Positions 1 through 20,000 of a DNA stretch of 20,000 nt are shown here, in pieces. The notes under the pieces were generated by a model. It ran no database searches and was not told where the DNA came from. It was given only the letters and a program-made list of their open reading frames with translations. Each line of letters opens with the position of its first letter. Position 1 is the stretch's first letter. The DNA is taken from NCBI GenBank assembly GCA_040437565.1, contig JBDOQK010000041.1, forward strand, positions 299,974 to 319,973. Direction: 5' to 3'. Source of the DNA: Albugo candida. Its lineage: Eukaryota. The position numbers and the translations under genes were made by a program.

Positions 1-3000
1 AGAGCCTCTGAAACGCATTCAGCTCAATCTCTAGTGTTCCTGGCAATCTCTCCTTTTGTGGGTCGAGCGAATCAAAGATATTTTTCCAGGAACTTGTGTT
101 CAATCGTATACTCTCGGCAACTTGTGAGAATGCTGGAAGACTGGATAGTGCGCAAATCTCACGCCACATACGATTATCGATTATCGAGGGATTGGGATTT
201 GACTCGTCTTTCAAAGATCCAGGGCAGGTTCCCGAGATGAGAAATCTCCATTCCAGAGGATCAATGTCTTTGCTGGTACCTTGTAACAACTTGATGACCA
301 TCAGAAAAGATAGCAGTAGCTTGTGCTCTTCGAACAAGGATCGACATATATTTCGATAAACGATATATGTGACGGAATCATTTAAAAAACGAAGTCTCTC
401 TTCAAGCTGATCGCTTTGTGCTGCGGCTCGAATACTTTTCACAAATATCGAAAAGAACCAAGGAAGTGAATATTGATACATGGGATTCACAAGTGCCAGA
501 TCAGCTATGCAAAAAAACAGTAAGGATGCCTGGAAAGCGACCGGACGATACTGATCACGCGAATCATCAATGCTTCGCTCCGTTATTTCAGCTTCACACA
601 TTTTATCATTGATATCCTCAGATGTGACTTTGGCCGTGCCAAGTGTTTGGAGCAGCTCTTTATCATCAAGAATATTACCCTCAGAGATGTTGAGCATTGT
701 CAGTATTTTATTCTCCAGTTCTAGCAGCTCAGCTTTCATCCGGGCATTTGACATGACGAGAGAGTTCTTTTTTTCAGCAAGCGCTGGCATTTCTTCCTGT
801 ACGACAGCATCCAGTGCTTGGTCTTCTAATCCCTTGGGTGTAATCGTAAAATTCAGCAGAGTTACCTTCACGGATACCTCCGGGGGATAGTGGGGATTTG
901 GAAGTTTTGTCGTCATAAGAAAACGAAAACACGGATGGTATGGGACGGTTGTGTCGCCAATCTTGATCATCGTTTGTCCACCTTGTTTGACTTTGATTTG
1001 TGCCAATATAGGCTCCAAGGTCGCGTCCAAGGACTCACCGACATTTTCAAGCAATACCCATCGTCCAAAACGAATGGCATTCTCCAGTGTCCTATTAAGC
1101 TGCTTGTCACCTGAATCCGTTATTTCTATTCCATTTTCAGATGTATCCTTTCCGAGATTCTTAATAAATCGATTTGCTTGTCCTTGCGGATCAATTAACA
1201 GCGGCCAACGACGTGCACGTGCCATGATGATTCCATTTTGCAATGAAAGAGTGTCAGAAGGAAGACCAGCAAGCTGCCAGGACCGCACTTTGACAGGATC
1301 AGCCAGCGTCGAGATAATACCGCAGCCTTTAGTAAATGGGACGTCAAGTGCTTGCAATGATTTATACCATTCCTGTAGACATCTCTCTCGTAATTCCATA
1401 GTGAATGGACCAAGATAACATATTGTTCCAGCTGATATTGCAACATCCCCAATCAAATTCTCCTCCGCTTGTCTTAATTGAGCAATGGTTGCAGCCCATC
1501 TACTTTCTTCACCATGAAGCAGGCCGATCAGCTTCAGCGCTGACTCGAGTCTACTTTCGCATTGTTGAACGTCCAAAATAAGCTGTTCCTTTTTTTCCAT
1601 AGCAGCATTGTAACTTTGTTCAAGCTCACTGAGCCGATCGACAACACCTTGAAGCTGTGACTTTGCATTCGCCAAAGCAGTTAATGTACTATCTAGCTCT
1701 GCTTGTGCTGTGGCGAGTGCTAACTTTTTGGGCTCCACCAGCTTGGACACATTATGGTACGTGTGCATTGCTCTCACCCACATACATATTGCTTCACAAG
1801 CAACGCTAGCTTTGCGTACAGCAGTGGGCGAGAAGTCTTCCATATCGATAAAAGGATCGATTTGTTGTATGATTTTCTCATTGATATTGTCTTTATCGAA
1901 CCTCAGCATATCGTCCAAAAGCTTCTTGGCATTACCAAGAATAGTCTTTTGTGCGCTTTCCCAATAATCTTTGATTTTTTGCCCCGGATGCTCTGGATCC
2001 ACCTTAGTGGCGGGTTTGACCCCAAATATGATACAAGCTGCTTCCATTGTCAGTTTAACGCCATGTGGAGGGTTCTTTAGTGCTTTTACTTCATCAATAT
2101 CAGACTTTCGAAGCTTGTTGAGGCATTGAGTGGCGGCATCCAAAGCAGGAAGTGCTTCATCCAAATCTTGCTGGGCATCACTCGCGATTTCGGCTGTGTC
2201 TGCTGCTTTTTTGTTGGCAATTTGCTCGTCCTTTTCGATGATGCTTTTGGTTTTATCAGCATCTTTTTTGTCAAGTGTAATTTGATTCATTAGAGCTTCT
2301 ACATCAATTTTTGTGATTTCCAATTGAGGCTTTAACGCCACAAGCTGTTGCTGCATCCGGGCAACCTGCTCTTTTGTCGTGATAATCTTGTCGACACCAT
2401 TTTGAAGCCGTGTCTTTTTCGAGGAAACCTCTTCTCTCAAGAGGGTTAAAAGAGATCTAAATGTGTTCAACAGCTCCAAGTAGCTAGCAGGTGTCACATA
2501 ATTTTTCCTTCGAAGTAAGTGAAAAAAGTCCTGGGAAGCGTGTTCGACACTTTGATGCATAGTGGAGAATACAATCTTCAGTGCCTCTCGAGACAATGCA
2601 TCAACAAGGAGTGATTCCTCCGATTCCGTATCATCTGTGTCAGAATTCGAGCTGAGTGATGAAGCAGCAACAGATTCCAATGCTTCAGCTGGCCATTCAG
2701 TAAACCAATCGATCGTGCAGCAGTTCACAAGAGAGGGGAACATGCGAAGTCGCTCTCGGAACATACTACCTAGAGGGCTCATACAGAGCACGACATGCAG
2801 ATTTTGTCGCACAAGGATAAGATACTGTGCAAACATATTGATTTTCGTCGCAGGAAGATTCTTCTTTGCACAAATCGATCTGCAATGTGCGTTTATCTGA
2901 TCCAGGTCTTCAGGCGTATACAAATTGGGAATATCACCACTATTGAGAACATTATTGATGTCTTCCAGCATGGTTTCATAAATGATCTGGGCATCTGAGA

Positions 3001-6000
3001 ATAAAAATACAATAGATTTTCCTGTGAGTCCAGATTTTAGCAAGACTTTCTTCAGGTCATCTCGCCATTCGGTGACGCCGTATCCTTTTGAGACTTCTAT
3101 TTGTACAGTGGTGTAGTCGGCCATGAAAGCTGCTAGGCGTGTCAGCGATTGTCTTCCGCTTCCTCCAACTCCAAGAAGCAAAGCGTTTCCACAAGGTTGA
3201 CGGATGATACGTGAGATACGTGACACATGCTCAATAGCATTTTTGAACATTACAAGGTACATGGGTGTCATGCTATCTGTGTTGTAGTCAAGAAGAGTCT
3301 CTTGTAGTTGATATTGCACTCTTCCCAAATCAGAAATCTCTTCGTAGCATTTTGCCTCTTCACCTTGGCTCAAATAATCTCCAAACAGCAATGATTCATG
3401 TGGGTGCACAATGTCCCAAATCTTTTGCTTACGATGTTCGAGGTCAGTTTCCTCACCATCTTGGATAAGTTGAGGCTCAAAATTATTGAGTACCTGCAGC
3501 TTGATGACATCTTGAAACCACATGTGATCTTCGTTCGTAGTAAAACGATCTTCAAATACGCGCATGAGTTCATGGACCCATAATCGTACAAGCTGCTCAG
3601 GTCGAACGATTCTCCCAGGATCCGCCATACGAACTCCTTGAAAAACTTTAGCCAAATCACGCAAATTGAATGTGTAATGAGACTTTGCCGGTGTGGGAAG
3701 TAACTCAGTGCTGACGATGTTGTATATATCTATCGACGAGTCGACTAGTTTTGAGATTATTTCTGGAGCTCTGAGACTTTCAGAGCCAAGTTTTTGACAA
3801 AAGTCACTTAATATCGTCTCAAATATGATTTTTTTGCTATCGGCAGCTATTTCTGTGGTTCCGATGATATTGAAATGCCGCAAAAGTCTTCGGCTTAGTG
3901 TGTTTCTACCTCCACCGGGTGGACCCATAGAACTGACAAAGACAATATCCACTATAGATCGAAAAGCCAACGTCTTGCGATCGTACCATCCACCTTGATC
4001 AAACCATTGTCGTAGTATCTCAATGGCTGGCTGAGCAAAGTACTCTTCGGGCTTTGGCATGTTTAGATCGTCAACGTAAACAAAAGCTGTCTTTCCGGCT
4101 GATGGACCATACACATTTTTCCTCCGTTTTTCCAGTTTAGAATCGATGTAATCTTGCGTCTGGTTTGCGCTTGTTTGTGCTGAGAACGACATTTTTATCC
4201 CTGTAAACTTTTCAGGGTCACATCGTTCAAGGAACTGATTGATATTTACAGTCTTTCCTGTACCAGTTGGTCCGACGAAGAGCATGTGGATATTATTACA
4301 TAGACCCAAATTCATCAAAAAAGCACACCGAATTGAATCCGATGTGGGAACAACGATTTCCGAAATCGAAGTGCCCATATTGCTGCTATAATTCGACACC
4401 ATATCAATCCAAGGAACCCATTCAGCCGCAGCTGTGTCATACGAGTAATCATACACAGAACGTTTTGCAGGAATTAAGGGTTTTATGCCATCAGAAGCCA
4501 TTTCTTCCCGAATGAAGGTGTCAAAGCGAGAACGCCCTGATTCAGTTGTTCCAGCTCCAAGAGACCAAATTAGTGAAAACATGAATAAACTCTCAAGGTG
4601 GAGCTTGTAGGATGTAATGAGCTCAATTTTCCGGTCTTTCTTCTCCGTAGGGTTACGTATTGGCATTAGAAAGCATCCCAATAGGCGGAAGAGACTTTGC
4701 ACAACATTGGATTTGATTTGAGGAATCCATTCTTTAACAAACTTTGCAATGAATTCTAATGATGGATTGATGTACCGATCGCTTAGTTTGATGATTGCTT
4801 CTAGAAATTCAGTCAAAGAGTCCTGAAAAGCTTGCAACTGCGCAGGAAGAGATTTCAGTGGTGGGCTTTTGAAGAGCGCATCAGTACTGATAATAGCTCC
4901 TTCTGAGCACTCAACGATCTCTGAAAATAAATTCTCTAACCAGCTCTGGATAAGTGGGTCCAGACCAAGAGAACTGGGTTCCATGTATACCATTCCTGTA
5001 CGACTGACTGTTGCCGGCGAAGCTACGCTTAGATCTTCGACCTCAAACATCATCGTCATCTCATTTGACATTTGTATAATCTCTCCACTGGAGAGGCATA
5101 GCTTCTTGTTGTCATCTAGAACAGTGTTCATATTTTCAATCCACAAAGCATCAACCGGTCCGTCAAAAATTATCCATTTTCGATCAGATTTTGTATCATT
5201 TGCTGCTTGTCGATATAATGTTGATAGAATTCCGTCTTGCCACTCATGAGTATTTGCGTCAAACTCTCCATATAATTGACCCATCGTGATCGCTTTCGGA
5301 TTGAGTTGATACCGACGTACGTACTCATATCCTTGACCCGATTCTCCAATGGATTTAAGCTCACTCAGAGCCTCCGCTAACACATCGATGTTGCAGCTTT
5401 TCCCTCCTCCCGTTCCCCCAACAACCATCAGCCCGTGTCGAACACGAATTGTTTCGTACAACTGCATAATTTTAAGCAGAAAAAATTGATGGGCTTGTAA
5501 TTTTTTCCTTTGAATCACTCGTTTGATCATACAATCCAAAGATGTTATATTCGACGTAGCTTGATCCACGTCGGGAAACAAATCGCTTATAAGTCCGTTG
5601 AATAAAGGTATGTCATGGGCGAGGAATTTAGGCATATTGACGTGCTGCAAAGCTTTAAGCAACAAAACTTCTTCATCCAATTCTGGAAATTGCTGCTTAT
5701 AATTACCTGCAGCAGTTATCACAGTCTTTACTGCTCGCATACCATAATCGTAGTGAGACTGAGAAGACAATTGTTCTGAGCAAAGTTTAAACGTTGTCAC
5801 CATTTTTGCCCCACACTGTTTCGCCTTTTCGTAACCATACGCAAAAAACATAATTTCTCCGATCATTGCATAATCAGGAACCATCATAGCAACTGGGCGA
5901 AATAATGCAGCCAGTGAGTCAGGCAGATCGGATCGTCCTGCGTATCCAGGGTTCATAGTAATGAACACACCAAATTGTGGGCTCACAAGAATTTCCGAAC

Positions 6001-9000
6001 CTTCAAAGAAAATACGCTTCTCATTAGCACGGATCGCAAGCTGCAAGGTCGTGATTTGCTGACCAATGACCGAAAGCACTTCGATATTGATTCGATTGAA
6101 TTCATCAAAGCAAGCCCAAGCTCCACAAGCAGCTAGGCCTTTGAAAAACTTGCCCATTGCTAAGTAATCTAATCCATCAGAGCAGTTGAACACAACACAT
6201 TGTTTAGCAAGTGCTTTGGCAAGATCTTTCGTGGTCTCCGTTTTTCCTGTCCCGGCTGGACCAGCTGGAGCACCACCGAGAATCATTTGTAGTGCCGCCA
6301 TCAATGTCATGTAGCATTTATCAGTCAGGGGAGTGATGACAAGCCGAAATGAATTTCCCAGATATTCATACCCGTAAGGCCTCTTTGCACTCACCATTTC
6401 AGCGAGAAGATCATCTTCCCAATAATAGCGCAATTGGCTCGACCACATAAAGTCATCTTTACTTTCGACTTTGCTTTGTGTTAGTTTCCATGTCACATCG
6501 CGTGCGTGGACATCGATGACGGTCAAGGCACCCACAGTTATCCTTGCAAGTTGGTTTAATGGCCCACGAACCATTTTGATCATATCGGCTAATTGTGACA
6601 ATTGCTTCGTCATCATCTTTTTGACGCCGTCTTGACCGAATTGCTGCATCGACTCCTCCATTTCCCTCGTCCAATGGAGTTGAGATGCGTTGAGCACACA
6701 CATTCCAGGCCACTTTTGTATCCATTTGACTCGGTCACATGTAACGTAATCTTGTATTGCCGCGTGCATGACGTCCCGAATGGTGGTTCGCATCATTACT
6801 TCGACTTCGGTCATCCAGTGCTCCAAACTCTTTCCTTTTGGGTTAACTGTTTGACTCAAAGCAACACTCTCTCCTTCCGCAGATATCATAGCATGGATGG
6901 TCGAATCAGCCCCAAAGTCAACAGCTACAATTCCTTCAAAGCATTTCTTCAAGTGAGGTTGGACTAGTTTCACGTCTTTTGATTCAGAAAGTATGGACAG
7001 TAGCTCTTCGTTTGAAAGAAAATAAAACCGACTGAACGCTGCTCGTTTTGTTTCCAGGAAATCTTTCAAACCTTTCTGTACTTGGTCCAGAAATCGATTA
7101 CTTTCAATCAATCTATCGAGAAACTTATCGTTGTTGCAGAATGCCAGAACACCAGGCTTCTGATTTGCATTTGCAAGTGTCTGCCGCCAGAATTTGTCAA
7201 CAGTGGCGAAGCGCTTTCCTTCAGTAGGTAGCTGCTTCGTAATATCTGGTGAATCAAAGATTGGCTGCAGATAGATCCAGCTGCGTTGTAAGTGCATCCA
7301 CTCGTCCATAACGTCCGAAACGACAGAAAGCGTTCTACCCCATCGGTTGATACGATCTTCAAAGGGTTTCTTGAAGGCCGAAAACTGCACCGCCTGGATC
7401 GTAGTTATCTGCTCATCCAAAATGGCTTGTATCTCATCGACTCCTTTCAAGACAAATGTGCCCGTTTCTCTGTACCCAACCACTTGTAGCTGGACAGCCC
7501 TCCACTGCTCTTCCAAGGTGCTCAATGTTTTTTCAATATTGAATTCTTTTCCGGACGTCTCACATATCCGAGTGATGCTGTCCAAATGTCGTTCGAGCCC
7601 AATGTCCAAAACATAACTTAGTCTCATCCCTCGATCCGGACGAAAATTCATCTTATTCTCTTGATTCATCTGTGTCCAATGTCGATCTTTCATTCCTGGG
7701 TTGCGAAGTGCCAAAATCAGAGGTACGTGAGGTCGAAAAGCGGCAATCTGAGTTCGAATCGTATTAGCAACCTCCATGCATCCTTTCAGTTCAGCTTTTT
7801 CAAAATGCTTGACAGCCTTTTGTATCATACCCCAACTACTTTCGACAAAACTCTCAATTTCCTCGCCATTCAAGTCCATAAACGGACTATCCATCCACTT
7901 TTTATGTTCCTTGATCCAGTTATTCGCAGTTCTCCATAGCAACGCATATGGATCGAAATGACGTCGGATTTTTTGAATATCATCGTAACTGGTGGTTTCT
8001 TGTCCAAAAAGTTGCTCTCTTGTTTTGAAGACTCTTGCATCCTCATCAACCTTAGCGATCTTCTGCTCGATGGCTACCGCGGATTTGTAAACGAATTCCA
8101 GACGACCAAGATCCGTGTATTGTCTAAATGTGTCTACTTCAGCGTGTAAGTGCCGTAATGTCTCAGTGAATTCAGCCTGTTGATCTTTCATTTCGGAGAA
8201 GAATTGTGTCTTTTGTGCTTCCAACAAGATGTTCATCTGCTTTACTTTTTCATTTACTTGGATGGGAGAAATTCGAACGCGCCATATAGTCATGAAATCG
8301 TCTCTATCGTACGAAAACCGAAAGTGATCTAGCACTACTCGATACTTTATCAGTAGTTGACTCTGCAACAATAGCGGAGCTATCTGAGCGGATACAGTAT
8401 TCAAGTACGAGCTCATTTCACTCAGCTCTTCGATATTAGATGGTGTCTTTTGTAGCTGACGCAAGATGAGTTCAAAGTTATCTGTAATATTCCGGGCGAG
8501 TGTCAGACAATTTTCCAATTGCCAATCTAGCAATTTCCTTGCAAGAGAACGATACTTTTCAGCAATCAGTTGTCGAACTGACGAACAATTAACCGAAAAC
8601 ATGCCCAGCTCAATATTTCTTGTCGGGAGGGTTTCCTCAACTTTCTTGGCATCATCAAGATGTTGTTGAATAGTTTCTTGCAATAAAGAAATATTTATCG
8701 GTCCTTTTTGAGGTTGGAATGTCTTTGTGTACTCATCTTCGTCCATATTGATTAGATTCACGTACGGCTGGTAATGCATAAGGTATTCGCGAAGTGGAGG
8801 CTCGGCTTCTTTGATCGAGACCTCGATCTGTTCACGAATATGTTCCACCCAGTCTTCTGTACTGGAGATAATCGGAATACATGGGTGAGAGCTCCAAAAC
8901 AGTTTATTCATCACCTTTTGCTCAATCTGCTTGATATTTCTAAGATTATCAAAACTTCTCATGAATATCGTCAAAATGCACTGACGAAATCTCGATATGG

Positions 9001-12000
9001 TGGTGCTGTATCCGAATAAGTGGCCATATTTAGGTGCAATTGGTTTGATAGGACACGTGCGCACTTCCTTTTCTGAGATCAGATTGCTTGCTGATCCTTC
9101 TTTTGGTTTAAGGTTTTCAGTCTCCCATAATGTAATTTTGCCTGCAGCTTCATCTACCTCAGATTGATTCATTACAACGACCTCAGGTAATTTGACCATA
9201 TGAACGCTAAACAATGCTGTAGGGAAGACAAATTGGCGCTCTTGACACATGTACTGCCACTGATGTTCATTTCCTATCACGTCACGGTTTAGGTCAGGGA
9301 ACGCGACAAAAGCGACTTTAGCGCTAATGATATGAACAGGTCCTATGTTTCCATGCTTTATATAGTCACAAAATGAGTGCAACGAATGATACATTAGATA
9401 TCGCAATGTATCACGCATTAGGAAGTGAATTCGGCGTAATAAGGATCGAAGTTTGCTGAATTCATATGTATCTTGCTGAGACTCTTGGAGATAATACCAT
9501 CCTTTACCAATACTCGCAAATGAGCTTTTGATCACTGTAACGATTTTCTGAGGCCAATCATCCGTGATGATCTTCATTACCGAATTCTCAAGGGCTTGTT
9601 GCTGCTGCTGAAACTCTTCCAGTTTATAACATCGTGCAGCTTTGATATTGAATAGCTCGAGTTGGAGTATTTTCTGACACTCTTCGCTGACTTTGGTCAA
9701 AGCATATAGAGCTTCAGGCGAGGTAAAAATTGAATGGAAAGAGAAACGCAGAAATTCATCCGAGTAGTCGACTGGAAGGGCACGAGTTTTCCGAAAGGGT
9801 AGGTTGTATTTGCTTTGAATCGAACAAGCTTTTGACACCTCTTNNNNNNNNNNNNNNNNNNNNNNNNNNNNNNNNNNNNNNNNNNNNNNNNNNNNNNNNN
9901 NNNNNNNNNNNNNNNNNNNNNNNNNNNNNNNNNNNNNNNNNNNAAGACAAATGTGCCCGTTTCTCTGTACCCAACCACTTGTAGCTGGACAGCCCTCCAC
10001 TGCTCTTCCAAGGTGCTCAATGTTTTTTCAATATTGAATTCTTTTCCGGACGTCTCACATATCCGAGTGATGCTGTCCAAATGTCGTTCGAGCCCAATGT
10101 CCAAAACATAACTTAGTCTCATCCCTCGATCCGGACGAAAATTCATCTTATTCTCTTGATTCATCTGTGTCCAATGTCGATCTTTCATTCCTGGGTTGCG
10201 AAGTGCCAAAATCAGAGGTACGTGAGGTCGAAAAGCGGCAATCTGAGTTCGAATCGTATTAGCAACCTCCATGCATCCTTTCAGTTCAGCTTTTTCAAAA
10301 TGCTTGACAGCCTTTTGTATCATACCCCAACTACTTTCGACAAAACTCTCAATTTCCTCGCCATTCAAGTCCATAAACGGACTATCCATCCACTTTTTAT
10401 GTTCCTTGATCCAGTTATTCGCAGTTCTCCATAGCAACGCATATGGATCGAAATGACGTCGGATTTTTTGAATATCATCGTAACTGGTGGTTTCTTGTCC
10501 AAAAAGTTGCTCTCTTGTTTTGAAGACTCTTGCATCCTCATCAACCTTAGCGATCTTCTGCTCGATGGCTACCGCGGATTTGTAAACGAATTCCAGACGA
10601 CCAAGATCCGTGTATTGTCTAAATGTGTCTACTTCAGCGTGTAAGTGCCGTAATGTCTCAGTGAATTCAGCCTGTTGATCTTTCATTTCGGAGAAGAATT
10701 GTGTCTTTTGTGCTTCCAACAAGATGTTCATCTGCTTTACTTTTTCATTTACTTGGATGGGAGAAATTCGAACGCGCCATATAGTCATGAAATCGTCTCT
10801 ATCGTACGAAAACCGAAAGTGATCTAGCACTACTCGATACTTTATCAGTAGTTGACTCTGCAACAATAGCGGAGCTATCTGAGCGGATACAGTATTCAAG
10901 TACGAGCTCATTTCACTCAGCTCTTCGATATTAGATGGTGTCTTTTGTAGCTGACGCAAGATGAGTTCAAAGTTATCTGTAATATTCCGGGCGAGTGTCA
11001 GACAATTTTCCAATTGCCAATCTAGCAATTTCCTTGCAAGAGAACGATACTTTTCAGCAATCAGTTGTCGAACTGACGAACAATTAACCGAAAACATGCC
11101 CAGCTCAATATTTCTTGTCGGGAGGGTTTCCTCAACTTTCTTGGCATCATCAAGATGTTGTTGAATAGTTTCTTGCAATAAAGAAATATTTATCGGTCCT
11201 TTTTGAGGTTGGAATGTCTTTGTGTACTCATCTTCGTCCATATTGATTAGATTCACGTACGGCTGGTAATGCATAAGGTATTCGCGAAGTGGAGGCTCGG
11301 CTTCTTTGATCGAGACCTCGATCTGTTCACGAATATGTTCCACCCAGTCTTCTGTACTGGAGATAATCGGAATACATGGGTGAGAGCTCCAAAACAGTTT
11401 ATTCATCACCTTTTGCTCAATCTGCTTGATATTTCTAAGATTATCAAAACTTCTCATGAATATCGTCAAAATGCACTGACGAAATCTCGATATGGTGGTG
11501 CTGTATCCGAATAAGTGGCCATATTTAGGTGCAATTGGTTTGATAGGACACGTGCGCACTTCCTTTTCTGAGATCAGATTGCTTGCTGATCCTTCTTTTG
11601 GTTTAAGGTTTTCAGTCTCCCATAATGTAATTTTGCCTGCAGCTTCATCTACCTCAGATTGATTCATTACAACGACCTCAGGTAATTTGACCATATGAAC
11701 GCTAAACAATGCTGTAGGGAAGACAAATTGGCGCTCTTGACACATGTACTGCCACTGATGTTCATTTCCTATCACGTCACGGTTTAGGTCAGGGAACGCG
11801 ACAAAAGCGACTTTAGCGCTAATGATATGAACAGGTCCTATGTTTCCATGCTTTATATAGTCACAAAATGAGTGCAACGAATGATACATTAGATATCGCA
11901 ATGTATCACGCATTAGGAAGTGAATTCGGCGTAATAAGGATCGAAGTTTGCTGAATTCATATGTATCTTGCTGAGACTCTTGGAGATAATACCATCCTTT

Positions 12001-13379
12001 ACCAATACTCGCAAATGAGCTTTTGATCACTGTAACGATTTTCTGAGGCCAATCATCCGTGATGATCTTCATTACCGAATTCTCAAGGGCTTGTTGCTGC
12101 TGCTGAAACTCTTCCAGTTTATAACATCGTGCAGCTTTGATATTGAATAGCTCGAGTTGGAGTATTTTCTGACACTCTTCGCTGACTTTGGTCAAAGCAT
12201 ATAGAGCTTCAGGCGAGGTAAAAATTGAATGGAAAGAGAAACGCAGAAATTCATCCGAGTAGTCGACTGGAAGGGCACGAGTTTTCCGAAAGGGTAGGTT
12301 GTATTTGCTTTGAATCGAACAAGCTTTTGACACCTCTTCATGCAAGAGAAAGCTTCGGAACACGCAATCGTCTTCGTCTCTTCGATGATGAAATTCAAAG
12401 ATCGTTTTGCATGTTGATCGCAAAAACTCAATCTGAACTTCATGGATGAGGGTGGTTGTGCCTGGAGTCTGCTGATTTTTCGCACGAAAAGAAGTTGTCG
12501 CAAGCTGAAACATGCGATTCAAGGTTTCCGTGCCAAGTTTGTGTAGCTCTTCGACCGGCATGCAGTCGACATAGAGCGCTTTTCTCATCATATCTTGCGC
12601 TTGTAATCGAGCAAAGTGTGCTTTCTTGACACGATCTGCAAAATTGAAAGGATCTTCGGCCTTGAAACATATACACAGCCGAGGTAAATGCATGATCTCG
12701 TCCACTTGGTCTTGCAAAAAGCGAACTTTGAACAAAGATTGTGCTGAATCGAAAGATAAGACCTCTGCATTCCACCAAACAAGCTGCCTTGTGACAGGGT
12801 CCATGATCGATGCACTCACAGGAATGGAAACAGATCCGTCCGTGTTAGTTCCTAATTGTATCCAATCGTTTGGTGCATGTTCTTCGAAAGTGTCGTCATC
12901 GAAAGCAGCTATATCAAGCTCATTTAAAAGCTTCAAAGCATTACCACTCGCATCTTTGAGCACTTTATGATAGATAGAGGATGATTGAAATTGAGATATT
13001 TTTTCGCGCATCAATTCCTGTAAGTTCACGGAAGCGTACAAGCGCTTTTTACGTTCTACTTCAATCTCTCGCGGTGCGCTCTCATTCGTACGTCTATGAT
13101 GAGGAACAAAAACTTTAGGGTCAATGGAACCGGATTTCTTTCTCGATATATCTTTATTTTTTCCAGTTGGTTCAATATAATTGATAGGCAAGTGAGCGCC
13201 ACTTTGGCTTTTCAATCCGAAATTTGTGATTCCGACCGGTACTCTGGCTGCATGTTTAGAAGGACTTGTTGATGGTGCCACGGCTCTTACATTATTAGCT
13301 GTCTAACAAAATAATTTCAATTGGGAGTAGTGTCATACTTGCGCAAACGTACATCATGACTGAGCTTTCCACGTTCCAT
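1..13379 (-). CDS. DNAH1: Axonemal inner-arm dynein heavy chain, DNAH1-like (3' end outside window; internal artefactual duplication/gap)
   Basis: Inferred exon 1 13379-13353 (MERGKLSHD), 50-nt phase-0 intron 13352-13303 (GTACGT...TTAG), then one open frame once the 2,495-nt duplication+gap is removed. The N-terminus has DNAH1-type motifs (IEVERKKRLY, FDDDTFEEHAPNDWI, LPRLCICFKAEDP, YVDCMP). P-loops read in one frame: AAA1 GPAGTGKT (6262-6239), AAA2 GGTGGGKS (~5420-5395), AAA3 GPTGTGKT (~4273-4250), AAA4 GVGGSGRQ (~3173-3150). Stalk/microtubule-binding region KNPPHGVKLTMEAAC (~2080-2035); AAA5 RRWPLLIDPQGQAN (~1215-1170). The frame is still open at position 1; about 3,600 aa lie in the window. 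Confidence 0.95.
7449..9843. repeat. Copy 1 of a 2,395-bp direct duplication (left of gap)
   Basis: Begins AAGACAAATGTGCCCG and ends TTTGACACCTCTT, the same as 9944-12338. The ORF track shows identical peptides at an offset of exactly 2,495 nt. Confidence 0.97.
9844..9943. other. Scaffold gap (100 N)
   Basis: Run of 100 N between the two duplicated copies. Confidence 0.99.
9944..12338. repeat. Copy 2 of the 2,395-bp direct duplication (right of gap); probably unmerged contig overlap
   Basis: Matches 7449-9843 in all spot checks; both inner ends abut the N run. Confidence 0.97.
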
Positions 13380-15306: not shown

Positions 15307-15406
15307 NNNNNNNNNNNNNNNNNNNNNNNNNNNNNNNNNNNNNNNNNNNNNNNNNNNNNNNNNNNNNNNNNNNNNNNNNNNNNNNNNNNNNNNNNNNNNN
15401 NNNNNN
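15307..15406. other. Scaffold gap (100 N)
   Basis: Run of 100 N in the RPN6/SPT3-like intergenic region. Confidence 0.99.
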
Positions 15407-18351: not shown

Positions 18352-18928
18352 TCATAACAAATTGTTAGAGTCGTCTGGCACTCTGACCGTTGCGCCTTCG
18401 AGTAGTTTAGAGACTTTAATTTGGCAGCCTAGACGCGATCTAACACAGAAAGAAAGTATTGAGAAGTCATAATCAGAACTATTTTTTTTTTTTTTTTTAC
18501 GTTTCAGTCAAACCCCATGCCAGATCAAGCATATCTTCTTCTTCTTCGGAGACTTCTGGCAATGCGTCATAAACCTCCTTTTCAAATATCAAATGGCATG
18601 TCGAGCATGCTAGCTCGCCACCGCAAGCCCCTTTCAAAGAAGAAGAAGAGGAGTCAGGGTTGAAAACCTTCAAAAAGATTGTCAGGGAAGAAGAAGAACC
18701 TTCGAGTTCGATGTCATTATCATGAGCAACATCGAGCAATGTTTCTCCGATTGCGGCGGATATGCAATTGCGCTGACCTTCATTATCGATGAAACAGAAC
18801 GAGACCTTTTTTTGAGTAGACAGAAATTTATGAAGGGTAACTGGTCCTGAATATCTGCTCGTATGATTCAGTAGCAACCGAATGCTATTTGATCCAAGTT
18901 TCGTGGACCAAAGCAGTGAAGCCAACAT
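18352..18928 (-). CDS. Mitochondrial adrenodoxin-type 2Fe-2S ferredoxin (Yah1/FDX-like), 3 exons, ~148 aa
   Basis: Exons 18928-18700, 18630-18501, 18439-18352. Motifs: GETLLDVAHDNDIELEGACGGELACSTCH...[22 protein letters not shown] (four cluster Cys). The N-terminus is rich in S/L/R/K, consistent with a mitochondrial presequence. Confidence 0.95.
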
Positions 18929-18978
18929 TCTAGTTAGTGTGGCTGGATCGATGGTACACACTATCATACCAAACAAGT

Positions 18979-18983
18979 AAAAA
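18979..18983 (-). terminator. Pol III terminator (T5) of tRNA-Lys
   Basis: TTTTT on the minus strand, 2 nt after the discriminator base. Confidence 0.75.
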
Positions 18984-18985
18984 TG

Positions 18986-19058
18986 TGCCCTCCGTGGGGC
19001 TCGAACCCACGACCACTGGCTTAAAAGGCCAGCGCTCTACCGACTGAGCTAGAAAGGC
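18986..19058 (-). tRNA. tRNA-Lys(TTT): tRNA-Lys (anticodon UUU), intronless, no encoded CCA
   Basis: GCCTTTCTAGCTCAGTCGGTAGAGCGCTGGCCTTTTAAGCCAGTGGTCGTGGGTTCGAGCCCCACGGAGGGCA. Acceptor stem GCCTTTC/GGAGGGC, A box TAGCTCAGTCGG, anticodon arm CTGGC-CTTTTAA-GCCAG, T arm GTGGG-TTCGAGC-CCCAC. Confidence 0.97.
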
Positions 19059-19072
19059 ACTTCTCAATTTGC
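19058..19072 (+). promoter_or_regulatory. Oomycete INR+FPR-like core promoter abutting the tRNA 5' end, pointing into the downstream ORF
   Basis: CACTTCTCAATTTGC fits CAYTYB-NNN-WTTY(NC), about 100 nt upstream of the ATG at 19159. Confidence 0.5.
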
Positions 19073-20000
19073 CAGCTGCTACGCACCTCGCAAACTGGAT
19101 ACACAACAACCAACTTTCAACCACACCACCCTTATTGACTACTATTCTCTCCAACAGAATGGTTTCTATCGACATTTCGCGTTTACCCATCGTTACGTCG
19201 TCCGACGATGTCACAACTCGTGCACCAGTTCCAACGGAAAATGTTTCTTTGGATGCGGCCACCTGCCACTCAGAATCCACGGAATCTGAAACGGTCCAAT
19301 CAGATGTGACCATGACTGTCGAGCCAGCTCGTATTCTACCCAAGGAGATTCCATCGATCCCTATGGACATCGATGACGCGACCGCGTCATTACCTCCTGT
19401 ATCGGTAAAAAAACCGGTTAAACAAGAAAACCGCGCTACCTTGGCGGATATCCTGAAGGGCAACGAGGAAATCCGCAAGGATAAAGCGGCTAAAAAAGCA
19501 ACATGGAAGGTTGAAATGCCTAAGCCATTAGCTGCGGATCTTCGCGCTATTGAAAAGCTTTTCGAAAATGGCCGCCCAAGTTGGGAGATTTTGTCTGCAC
19601 ACTTGACTGCAGCAAAACCCTTCGCTCTACCCAGTGCAAAATTCTCGGTAGTGCTGGAAACTGGTCAGGCGCTGGTTCGAATCCCACCAGCGCATATTTT
19701 GCAATCCTTCGTTCGAGATCACGGTAATGTGATTGTCGACGAGCTTTTCGAAGCAGGGAAAATTGGCCAATTGGCTAAATTGCCAGGTGGTAATTTGAGA
19801 CTCCTCGTTACCGAAGAGGAAGTTTGCCATAAATTGGCCCACGAAACTGTTACGATTCTTGGGAACAAATACTCATTCCGTGAATTCGATATTCTTGGTT
19901 CGAGATTTTTCTTGGATATTTTCGGAATTGGACCGGAAATGCCCACACTCAACATTGCGTCGGCTTTGCATCGTCTTGGGTGCGATGTTCTGTATGAGAA
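19059..20000 (+). mobile_element. Putative 5' end of a non-LTR retrotransposon adjacent to tRNA-Lys
   Basis: INR-like start, C/A-rich ~100-nt leader (CAACAACCAAC, CAACCACACCACCC), then the ORF1-like frame. The boundary and identity are inferred; ORF2, the 3' tail and a target-site duplication would lie outside the window. Confidence 0.5.
19159..20000 (+). CDS. Intronless ORF (at least 280 aa, open to window end) resembling ORF1 (RRM-type gag-like protein) of an L1/Tx1-like non-LTR retrotransposon
   Basis: Translated by hand with no stop from 19159 to 20000: MVSIDISRLP...(S/T/P/E-rich disordered region)...RATLADILKG...KLPGGNLRLLVTEEEVCHKLAHETVTILGNKYSFREFDILGSRFFLDIFGIGPEMPTLNIASALHRLGCDVLYE. 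This matches the ORF1p layout of disordered N-terminus, SYA..V-like helix and tandem RRM-like segments. It looks more GC-rich than the neighbouring genes and has no introns. No RT or endonuclease is visible in the window. Confidence 0.65.
   Translation, partial: MVSIDISRLPIVTSSDDVTTRAPVPTENVSLDAATCHSESTESETVQSDVTMTVEPARILPKEIPSIPMDIDDATASLPPVSVKKPVKQENRATLADILKGNEEIRKDKAAKKATWKVEMPKPLAADLRAIEKLFENGRPSWEILSAHLTAAKPFALPSAKFSVVLETGQALVRIPPAHILQSFVRDHGNVIVDELFEAGKIGQLAKLPGGNLRLLVTEEEVCHKLAHETVTILGNKYSFREFDILGSRFFLDIFGIGPEMPTLNIASALHRLGCDVLYE

Follow-up and report, generated by a model that had tools for sequence, protein, structure and literature searches.

A 20,000-nucleotide (nt) stretch of the genome of the oomycete Albugo candida (assembly GCA_040437565.1, contig JBDOQK010000041.1, positions 299,974 to 319,973 of the forward strand; hereafter the window) contains, at positions 19059-20000, the 5' end of a young, multi-copy retrotransposon that lacks long terminal repeats (non-LTR) and has two open reading frames (ORFs), a long interspersed nuclear element (LINE) of the type encoding an apurinic/apyrimidinic endonuclease (APE) and a reverse transcriptase (RT). 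The element lies head-to-head with an intact tRNA-Lys(UUU) gene, and relatives retrieved blind to tRNAs begin in the same orientation within 2 nt of other tRNAs. It is very probably a tRNA-gene-associated LINE, and tRNA genes seem to serve its family as safe places to land. The target class appears to be tRNA genes in general, with tRNAs for Lys, Met and Cys represented.

The LINE family and its 5' boundary

The ORF in the window (19159-19998, plus strand) comprises 280 amino acids (aa) from an ATG start and is stop-free up to the window end. Its ATG is separated by 100 nt from the 5' end of the tRNA-Lys gene (19058), and the observation of the sequence-only reading that an ORF of at least 280 aa diverges from the tRNA at this distance proved correct to the base. 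A search restricted to longer proteins identified 11 homologues (E ≤ 1e-3) among 5378 candidates, the best of which is a 602-aa protein of Albugo candida (E 2.4e-112, 67% identity across the whole query); the others include two Globisporangium splendens models, three proteins of A. laibachii and unnamed ones of 730-843 aa. Furthermore, a profile of these homologues, searched against 1.84 billion cluster representatives, gave 455 relatives at E ≤ 1e-3, and this homology is, at the level of sequence, beyond chance. Named members of the ORF1 family occur in Albugo candida, A. laibachii, Globisporangium, Lagenidium and Aphanomyces. By these comparisons, the window ORF is the first third of a predicted ORF1 (~730-930 aa) of an oomycete-wide L1-like LINE family.

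Domain databases offer little on ORF1 itself. A Pfam scan of the window ORF (P0001) yielded only a sub-threshold DNA_pol_phi match, and among ten ORF1 relatives scanned against Pfam seven matched no family and none an ORF1p family. G. splendens P0011 and P0012 matched ORF2 domains only, plus a sub-threshold Questin_oxidase in P0012. The A. laibachii gene model P0008, which gave sub-threshold HAD/Hydrolase matches only, fuses an ORF1 fragment to an apparent HAD-type hydrolase and is an annotation artefact derived from the element. A comparison of the ORF1 profile with PDB sequences returned nothing meaningful and no match to L1 ORF1p; a match to phage gp11 (E 0.0028), which covers a low-complexity linker, was judged noise.

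The second ORF identifies the family as a LINE. Both G. splendens P0011 and P0012 consist of an ORF1-like region followed by an APE domain (PF03372), and P0012 also contains an RT domain (PF00078, RVT_1). Two further long members, P0016 and P0051, repeat the order of ORF1-like region and APE, the latter also with RT. The metagenome contig L003 encodes ORF1 at 340-2850 (836 aa) and, from 2951, ORF2 with APE (PF03372, E 2.4e-7) and the start of RVT_1 (24 bits, ended by the contig end). Residues 802-1528 of P0012 are colinear with residues 8-732 of human L1 ORF2p, spanning APE and RT (E 3.8e-50), whereas R2 proteins matched P0012 in the RT part only and far more weakly. Human L1 ORF2p is thus the best solved relative, and distant relatives contain zf-RVT, one of them being named LIN1. 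ORF2 relatives of ~1340-1390 aa comprise 895 proteins at E ≤ 1e-10, including proteins from Plasmopara, Peronospora and Aphanomyces.

Translation of ORF2 probably needs a frameshift or reinitiation, because its frame opens in +1 before the ORF1 stop (overlap of 32 nt in L003, from 2819, and of 26 nt in a second metagenome contig, L002, at 2909-2934) and the endonuclease domain starts upstream of any ATG in ORF2 of both contigs. Gene models of Globisporangium in which ORF1 and ORF2 are fused are likewise accounted for by the +1 overlap. The G. splendens models named 'Pollike' (P0011, P0012, P0184 and P0213) are annotation artefacts of this kind, and two of them run through the 5' untranslated region (UTR) into the flank.

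The sequence-only reading had taken the ORF to belong to a retrotransposon, and this holds: APE or RT follows ORF1 in P0011, P0012, P0016, P0051 and L003, and the sequence is multi-copy. The contrary explanation, that the ORF is a single-copy host gene merely resembling a retroelement protein, could draw on the absence of a Pfam family for the ORF and of a visible ORF2 in the window. However, the sequence is multi-copy in four sequencing runs, and the linkage of ORF1, APE and RT recurs on several independent proteins and on L003, which leaves the host-gene explanation a negligible probability.

The repeat and its boundary were delimited with Logan contigs of four public runs aligned to window positions 18400-20000 at 80% likeness. 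Identical or nearly identical element contigs (0-1 differences over 333-460 nt) had depths of 41.3 in run X1, 82.5 in X2 and 1415.5 in X5, as opposed to 4.77, 8.93 and 132.3, respectively, for the flank contigs. The element thus stands at ~9-11 times the single-copy flank depth in these three runs, a rough contig-to-contig figure and not a copy count; since summed depth is not a copy number, only such ratios were used. Many further contigs are 80-95% like the element sequence of the window. Run X17, whose RNA origin is a mere guess, also gave contigs identical to the element, and these were not counted as a sign of expression.

Depth rises stepwise in the bin 19048-19101, four X2 contigs differ from the window leftwards of 19059, and the alignment of a diverged single-copy contig (X2 record 18, with 46 differences) begins precisely at 19059. 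It is thus at 19059, one base from the first nucleotide of tRNA-Lys, that the repeat starts. The 100 nt up to the ATG are therefore the 5' UTR of the element and not an intergenic spacer.

This boundary bears on whether the tRNA could be part of the mobile unit, as an antisense segment at its 5' end or by 5' transduction, and not a target. At each junction the conserved start lies right against the tRNA, and depth is already high at 19057 (3772 in X5), as such a unit would have it. Yet the tRNA-Lys body reaches only ~4 times single-copy depth in X5 compared with 13-52 times for the element, and a single-copy X1 flank contig runs unbroken from the neighbouring ferredoxin gene through the tRNA to 19059. 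Together with the four X2 copies that have other sequence left of 19059 and the different tRNAs adjoining different family members, these observations make a mobile tRNA highly improbable.

Two further observations concern the boundary. In all four runs, contigs were found that share only the first 16 nt of tRNA-Lys (19043-19058) before the element start and continue left of 19043 into one common unrelated sequence (agreement 0.98-1.0). These could represent a tandem insertion, in which the 3' end of one copy is followed by a target duplication (tRNA positions 1-16) and a second copy. Furthermore, the X1 single-copy contig (record 1) has zero differences to window positions 18510-19059 and then 25 non-matching letters, and may derive from an empty-site or variant allele of the insertion.

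Junctions with tRNA genes and the start motif

Independent junctions were sought with A4, an alignment built from the C-terminal domain of ORF1, in which neither tRNAs nor the 5' end play a part; it took the place of an alignment (A3) too diverse for a search pattern. A metagenome scan with A4 returned three contigs, L001, L002 and L003, of which L001 starts within ORF1, has no 5' flank and was left out of the junction count. With the N-terminal ORF1 alignment (A1), the metagenome scan gave 171 pattern matches and 0 confirmed hits; scans of viral contigs and of prokaryote genomes with A1 and A4 likewise gave 0 confirmed hits. The ORF1 of the window shares 40% identity with that of L003 (over 224 aa, E 5e-51) and 38% with that of L002 (over 212 aa, E 5e-48), and the two contigs share 67% with each other.

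L003 (4638 nt) contains a tRNA-Cys(GCA) at 145-216 on the minus strand (ARAGORN; Rfam 60.4 bits), and the conserved element start follows at 219. L002 (3392 nt) begins inside a minus-strand tRNA (1-46), with the element start at 47 and the ORF1 start at 148. This truncated tRNA scores 29.3 bits against the Rfam gathering score of 29 over model positions 1-45, ended by the contig end, and has CAT at the anticodon position (Met-CAU-like; read from the Rfam alignment). An opposite-strand tRNA is thus present at 3/3 readable junctions, its 5' end 0, 0 and 2 nt from the element start and its identity different each time; both unbiased junctions (2/2, L002 and L003) have the head-to-head tRNA. The proposed tRNA association was accordingly upheld at every locus with a readable 5' flank.

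The element start itself is conserved. Its first 15 nt, ACTTCTCAATTTGCC, are identical in the window, L002 and L003 (alignment A5), and a hand count on A5 gave 28/31 identical positions between the window and L003 and 24/31 between the window and L002 over the first 31 nt. Past the first ~31 nt the 5' UTR is unalignable; L002 and L003 have 5' UTRs of 101 and 121 nt, respectively. Among 287 proteins examined, two Globisporangium gene models (P0184 and P0213) read through the 5' UTR. In P0184 the start-motif peptide is directly preceded by 12 residues identical to those that the L002 tRNA yields when translated in antisense (BLASTP 12/13).

The conserved start resembles the oomycete core promoter, which, in the available text of the source (Roy et al. 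2013, PMC3599244), consists of an initiator (INR, YCAYTYY), a 2-nt spacer and a flanking promoter region (FPR, MWTTTNC), usually lies 50-100 nt from the start codon and usually initiates at the INR A. At window positions 19057-19072, 6/7 INR and 7/7 FPR positions match, 100 nt from the ATG. The pattern CAYTYYNNMWTTTNC matches the window at 19058-19072 and, without its first C, L002 at 47-60 and L003 at 219-232; the 19-nt start motif has a single occurrence in the window, where 0 were expected. The INR A is the first base of the repeat, and in 2/3 cases the complement of the tRNA's first G would supply position -1 of the promoter. On the simplest reading of the sequence, the element RNA would start at this A. 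Promoter parts located downstream of +1 would travel with each full-length copy, which would explain why nucleotides are conserved here at 40% protein identity.

Could the element be an untargeted L1-like LINE whose tRNA neighbours arose by chance, or by purging of insertions elsewhere in a compact genome? The genome is indeed dense, a ferredoxin gene starting 18 nt beyond the 3' side of the tRNA, and P0213 lacks a clear tRNA signature. Orientation and 0-2 nt distance are, however, the same at 3/3 junctions with three tRNAs, at 38-40% ORF1 identity between the window and the contigs. For A. laibachii, 153 tRNA genes have been reported (PMC3130010), and the chance that a tRNA starts within 3 nt on the appropriate strand is ~1e-5 per locus, a rough value for a genome assumed to be a few tens of Mb. 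As purging of harmful insertions would not yield single-nucleotide precision either, an untargeted element is very unlikely.

Several points nevertheless weigh against a tRNA-targeting LINE. The window ends inside ORF1, so that ORF2, the 3' end and the target-site duplication lie beyond it, and L002 and L003 also end before the element 3' end and target-site duplication. The association rests on three DNA junctions, one of which the sequence-only reading picked for its tRNA, and these junctions are separate sequences and not a within-genome census. The ~4-fold depth of the tRNA-Lys body implies that most copies do not lie beside a Lys-like tRNA, although this is compatible with other tRNAs as neighbours, and a 30-nt consensus of the four X2 upstream flanks (agreement 0.59) showed no obvious tRNA signature. 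In P0213 the start-motif peptide has no recognisable antisense-tRNA peptide upstream, and the upstream peptide, read by hand as antisense tRNA, did not fit a canonical tRNA; P0213 may stand as a counter-example, or its gene model may be spliced. On its own strand, the tRNA-Cys of L003 lacks four or more consecutive T in the 44 nt downstream (L003 101-144), in contrast to the tRNA-Lys of the window, and so may be weakly terminated or inactive instead of a working gene. Finally, the transcription start, the contact with an RNA polymerase III (Pol III) complex and active integration are all inferred.

ORF1p architecture and other features of the window

A full-length ORF1 relative (P0006, 843 aa) was modelled with AlphaFold (AF2) from a 50-row alignment, with a mean predicted local distance difference test score (pLDDT) of 75.7. 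The model was mapped to the window by an ungapped 23-residue offset (A1), by which window residue 280 corresponds to P0006 residue 303. It predicts a disordered N-terminus, a confident domain at ~140-380 (pLDDT above 90), a disordered linker and a second confident domain at ~520-840, with only short helices before two folds resembling the RNA recognition motif (RRM). According to the model, the window would encode the entire first RRM-like fold and the first 36 residues of the second (Table 1).

Table 1. Coordinates of the tRNA-Lys gene, the element start and the predicted parts of ORF1 in the window
Feature	Position	Strand	Basis and remarks
Five-T run on the tRNA-Lys strand	18979..18983	minus	Read from sequence; 2 nt past the tRNA 3' end
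tRNA-Lys(UUU) gene, intact	18986..19058	minus	ARAGORN, Rfam RF00005, cloverleaf fold; putative integration landmark, first nucleotide 19058
Element first bases, ACTTCTCAATTTGC, matching INR (from its A), 2-nt spacer and FPR	19059..19072	plus	Putative transcription start
Element 5' UTR, 100 nt, C/A-rich	19059..19158	plus	Repeat boundary and composition; first ~31 nt conserved in distant members
ORF1, 5' part (280 codons to 19998)	19159..20000	plus	ORF search and homologues; interrupted by window end
N-terminal region of ORF1p, poorly conserved, probably disordered	19159..19440	plus	Gapped in A1; P0006 residues 1-112 pLDDT < 50
Short conserved helix (TLADILKG), predicted	19441..19470	plus	P0006 helix 118-127, modest confidence, block pLDDT 54-57
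First RRM-like fold, predicted (contains GNLRLLV; residues ~159-246)	19633..19896	plus	P0006 pLDDT > 90; RRM matches 182-275
Second RRM-like fold, start, predicted (FFLDIFGI, IASALHRLG)	19888..20000	plus	RRM matches P0006 267-362; incomplete at window end

Structure searches support the RRM assignment. With Foldseek, the first confident domain of P0006 matched tandem-RRM proteins best (E 4.7e-4 to 7e-3 over ~190-200 columns), in the order NONO/SFPQ (4.7e-4), IMP3 RRM12, hnRNP A1 UP1 and HuR. In the VIA wide search with P0006, which does not depend on Foldseek, the matches listed were RRM domains or, by title, RRM-bearing chains, over the sub-ranges 182-275 and 267-362. The best of these had Z 7.6 (root-mean-square deviation (rmsd) 8.5, 156 aligned residues) across both folds and Z 6.9 (rmsd 3.1, 79 aligned) on the second fold, values that are middling but consistent. 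The segments that the sequence-only reading had called RRM-like fall on strands and helices of the modelled RRM-like folds. The LINE ORF1p-like architecture that it proposed is likewise reproduced by the model (disordered N-terminus, TLADILKG helix and two RRM-like folds), without a sequence match to ORF1p families. The tandem folds presumably bind the element RNA.

The C-terminal domain of ORF1p (~310 residues, alpha/beta), modelled alone (P0022), reached a pLDDT of 93.2 and a predicted template modelling score (pTM) of 0.92. It matched no Pfam family, and Foldseek found no match in the PDB (best E 0.6) or in BFVD (best E 0.53). In the VIA wide search the best Z was 3.2, with 0/48161 chains at Z ≥ 5, and the best ESM Atlas score, 0.79, lies under the useful range. 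The absence of a structural match does not prove a new fold for the modelled domain, which we regard as a candidate targeting module.

The tRNA-Lys(UUU) gene is the only tRNA that ARAGORN identified in the whole 20 kb (18985-19058, minus strand). Rfam RF00005 covers 18986-19058 of this strand over model positions 1-71 and scores 71.3 bits, the gathering score being 29, and the tRNA folds as a cloverleaf. The gene is thus intact, with its 5' end at 19058, exactly as first read from the letters. A run of T after the tRNA 3' end is expected as a Pol III terminator, and the five-T run at 18979-18983 is likely that of tRNA-Lys. Two other relations between tRNA and element were considered and dropped: template switching onto the tRNA, which would require another orientation and is at odds with a tRNA that has its own terminator and flanks, and a primer-binding site, as the element matches the 5' and not the 3' end of the tRNA.

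On the other side of the tRNA, an ORF for a 2Fe-2S ferredoxin is located at 18497-18967 on the minus strand (Pfam Fer2 22.3 bits, cut-off 21). Its first ATG is 18 nt from the 3' side of tRNA-Lys, which places the tRNA and the 5' end of the element within the ferredoxin upstream region. Elsewhere in the window, a 2395-nt exact repeat (7449-9843 and 9944-12338) flanks a scaffold gap of 100 N (9844-9943) inside a dynein heavy chain gene (ORFs 2..9577 and 9697..13011, minus strand). It looks like an assembly artefact from unmerged overlapping contig ends and not a real duplication. In a search whose length limits left out full-length dyneins, the best named match to the dynein gene came from Aphanomyces (48% identity). 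A second gap of 100 N is present at 15307-15406.

Proposed targeting mechanism and known systems

We propose that the family would integrate head-to-head with tRNA genes, in this one orientation and directly upstream of them, with its first base 0-2 nt from the mature tRNA start. An element protein, possibly through the ORF1p C-terminal domain or ORF2p, would read either the Pol III complex or, in the tRNA gene, its conserved 5' part and thereby position the endonuclease nick for target-primed reverse transcription. RNA polymerase II (Pol II) would then transcribe the element from its own INR+FPR-like first 14 bases; as these are present in every full-length copy, each copy would bring its own core promoter.

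How the tRNA gene is recognised can be weighed within the tRNA-associated reading. The same element and association could result if the endonuclease or a different part of ORF2p read the 5' DNA of the tRNA gene (A-box/D-arm) directly, without tethering to the Pol III complex. An identical D-arm stretch is present in all three tRNAs (A5), but this sequence is common among tRNAs, so that its occurrence in 3/3 is weak evidence, and the acceptor stems of the three differ completely. The nucleotide-precise junction (0-2 nt) would suit direct reading, as would the existence of APE-type target-specific lineages (Tx1 and R1 groups, as far as described in the available text of PMC4640811 and PMC4494074). 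The contigs that retain only the first 16 nt of the tRNA, found in 4/4 runs, could reflect a target-site duplication into the A box, although no nick site or duplication was seen. Moreover, the known tRNA-flanking elements TRE5-A and Ty3 use TFIIIB contacts, according to the portions available of PMC5911963. Taken by itself, direct reading by ORF2p is possible but not the explanation we favour. If tethering to a complex and direct DNA recognition are compared, tethering receives, roughly, a little more than an even chance and direct recognition a distinctly lower one.

Joined together, these elements suggest a tentative picture, which as a whole we consider possible and rather doubtful. An ancient, oomycete-wide LINE would have evolved, independently of TRE and NLTR in amoebozoans, to dock with single-nucleotide precision at the first base of tRNA genes. 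The first ~31 nt would serve both as a Pol II core promoter and as an upstream region that keeps the tRNA transcribed by Pol III, its ~310-residue C-terminal domain would read the Pol III complex, and the 16-nt duplication of tRNA positions 1-16 would mark tandem hits.

In the full-text literature, no tRNA-associated non-LTR family was found reported in oomycetes; Repbase and supplements lay outside this scope, and earlier annotation there is possible. The same literature on non-LTR elements of oomycetes and Albugo yielded only the U2-targeting Utopia and a paper on RNase H-bearing L1, in which none is listed for Albugo. In the available text of reviews, retrotransposons directed to tRNA genes are described from yeasts and social amoebae alone, and oomycetes and stramenopiles go unmentioned (PMC5911963). 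If a census confirms the pattern, convergent safe-site targeting would extend to a third eukaryotic supergroup, and with an extreme geometry, the element abutting the mature tRNA start. The 15-nt start would then be a clean diagnostic for full-length copies, and the family would explain odd gene models in the annotations of Albugo and Globisporangium. It would also be a natural example of a LINE whose first bases supply an oomycete INR+FPR core promoter, and one of its domains, confidently folded and of unknown fold, would be a candidate for the targeting module.

The relation to known elements is one of partial likeness. Human L1 (ORF2p structures 8uw3 and 8sxt) shares the colinear APE+RT ORF2 and an ORF1 with an RRM-type fold ahead of it, but is not tRNA-targeted; in the window family, ORF1p is 2-3 times longer, with two RRM-like folds and, in addition, a large C-terminal domain. 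Utopia, a non-LTR element of oomycetes, is likewise target-specific and uses a multicopy small-RNA gene (U2 small nuclear RNA) as landing site. As described in the available text (PMC4640811), it has a restriction-like endonuclease, inserts within U2 genes and has a host list from which Albugo is absent, whereas the window family is of the APE type and leaves the tRNA intact. LINEs of the Tx1 and R1 clades share an APE-type endonuclease with sequence-specific targets; Tx1 is described, in the portions available (PMC4640811, PMC4494074), as an animal clade that usually inserts inside its target sequence. Ty3 of Saccharomyces cerevisiae also inserts with nearly nucleotide-level precision where Pol III genes start (PMC5911963, in the text available), but differs from the window family as an LTR element that employs an integrase instead of target-primed reverse transcription.

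The closest parallels are found in social amoebae. TRE5 elements of Dictyostelium discoideum, represented by TRE5-A, are L1-type and insert upstream of tRNA genes with their 5' end facing the tRNA. They need a frameshift between ORF1 and ORF2, as the window family also may, and TRE5-A ORF1p contacts TFIIIB (PMC5911963, available text). The sequence-only reading had likened the geometry in the window to that of TRE5, which is appropriate for the upstream position and the facing 5' end but not for the spacing, as the element abuts its tRNA (0-2 nt) and TRE5 inserts 40-54 bp upstream (PMC5911963, same text). The TRE5 frameshift is -1, whereas ORF2 of the window family is in the +1 frame, and the TRE5 5' UTR is modular (A and B modules) compared with a 100-nt UTR with an INR+FPR-like start in the window. 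In integration geometry, Dp_NLTR-A of Dictyostelium purpureum comes closest to the window family (Spaller et al. 2016, PMC5006619; PMC5911963, in the text available of both). Like the window family, it is a two-ORF non-LTR element with APE and RT whose ORF1 and ORF2 overlap, the size of NLTR-A being ~7.4 kb. Dp_NLTR-A differs in its amoebozoan host and in an RNase H domain after the RT, and is likened here by description and not by sequence; set against it, the window family keeps a distance of 0-2 nt to the tRNA.

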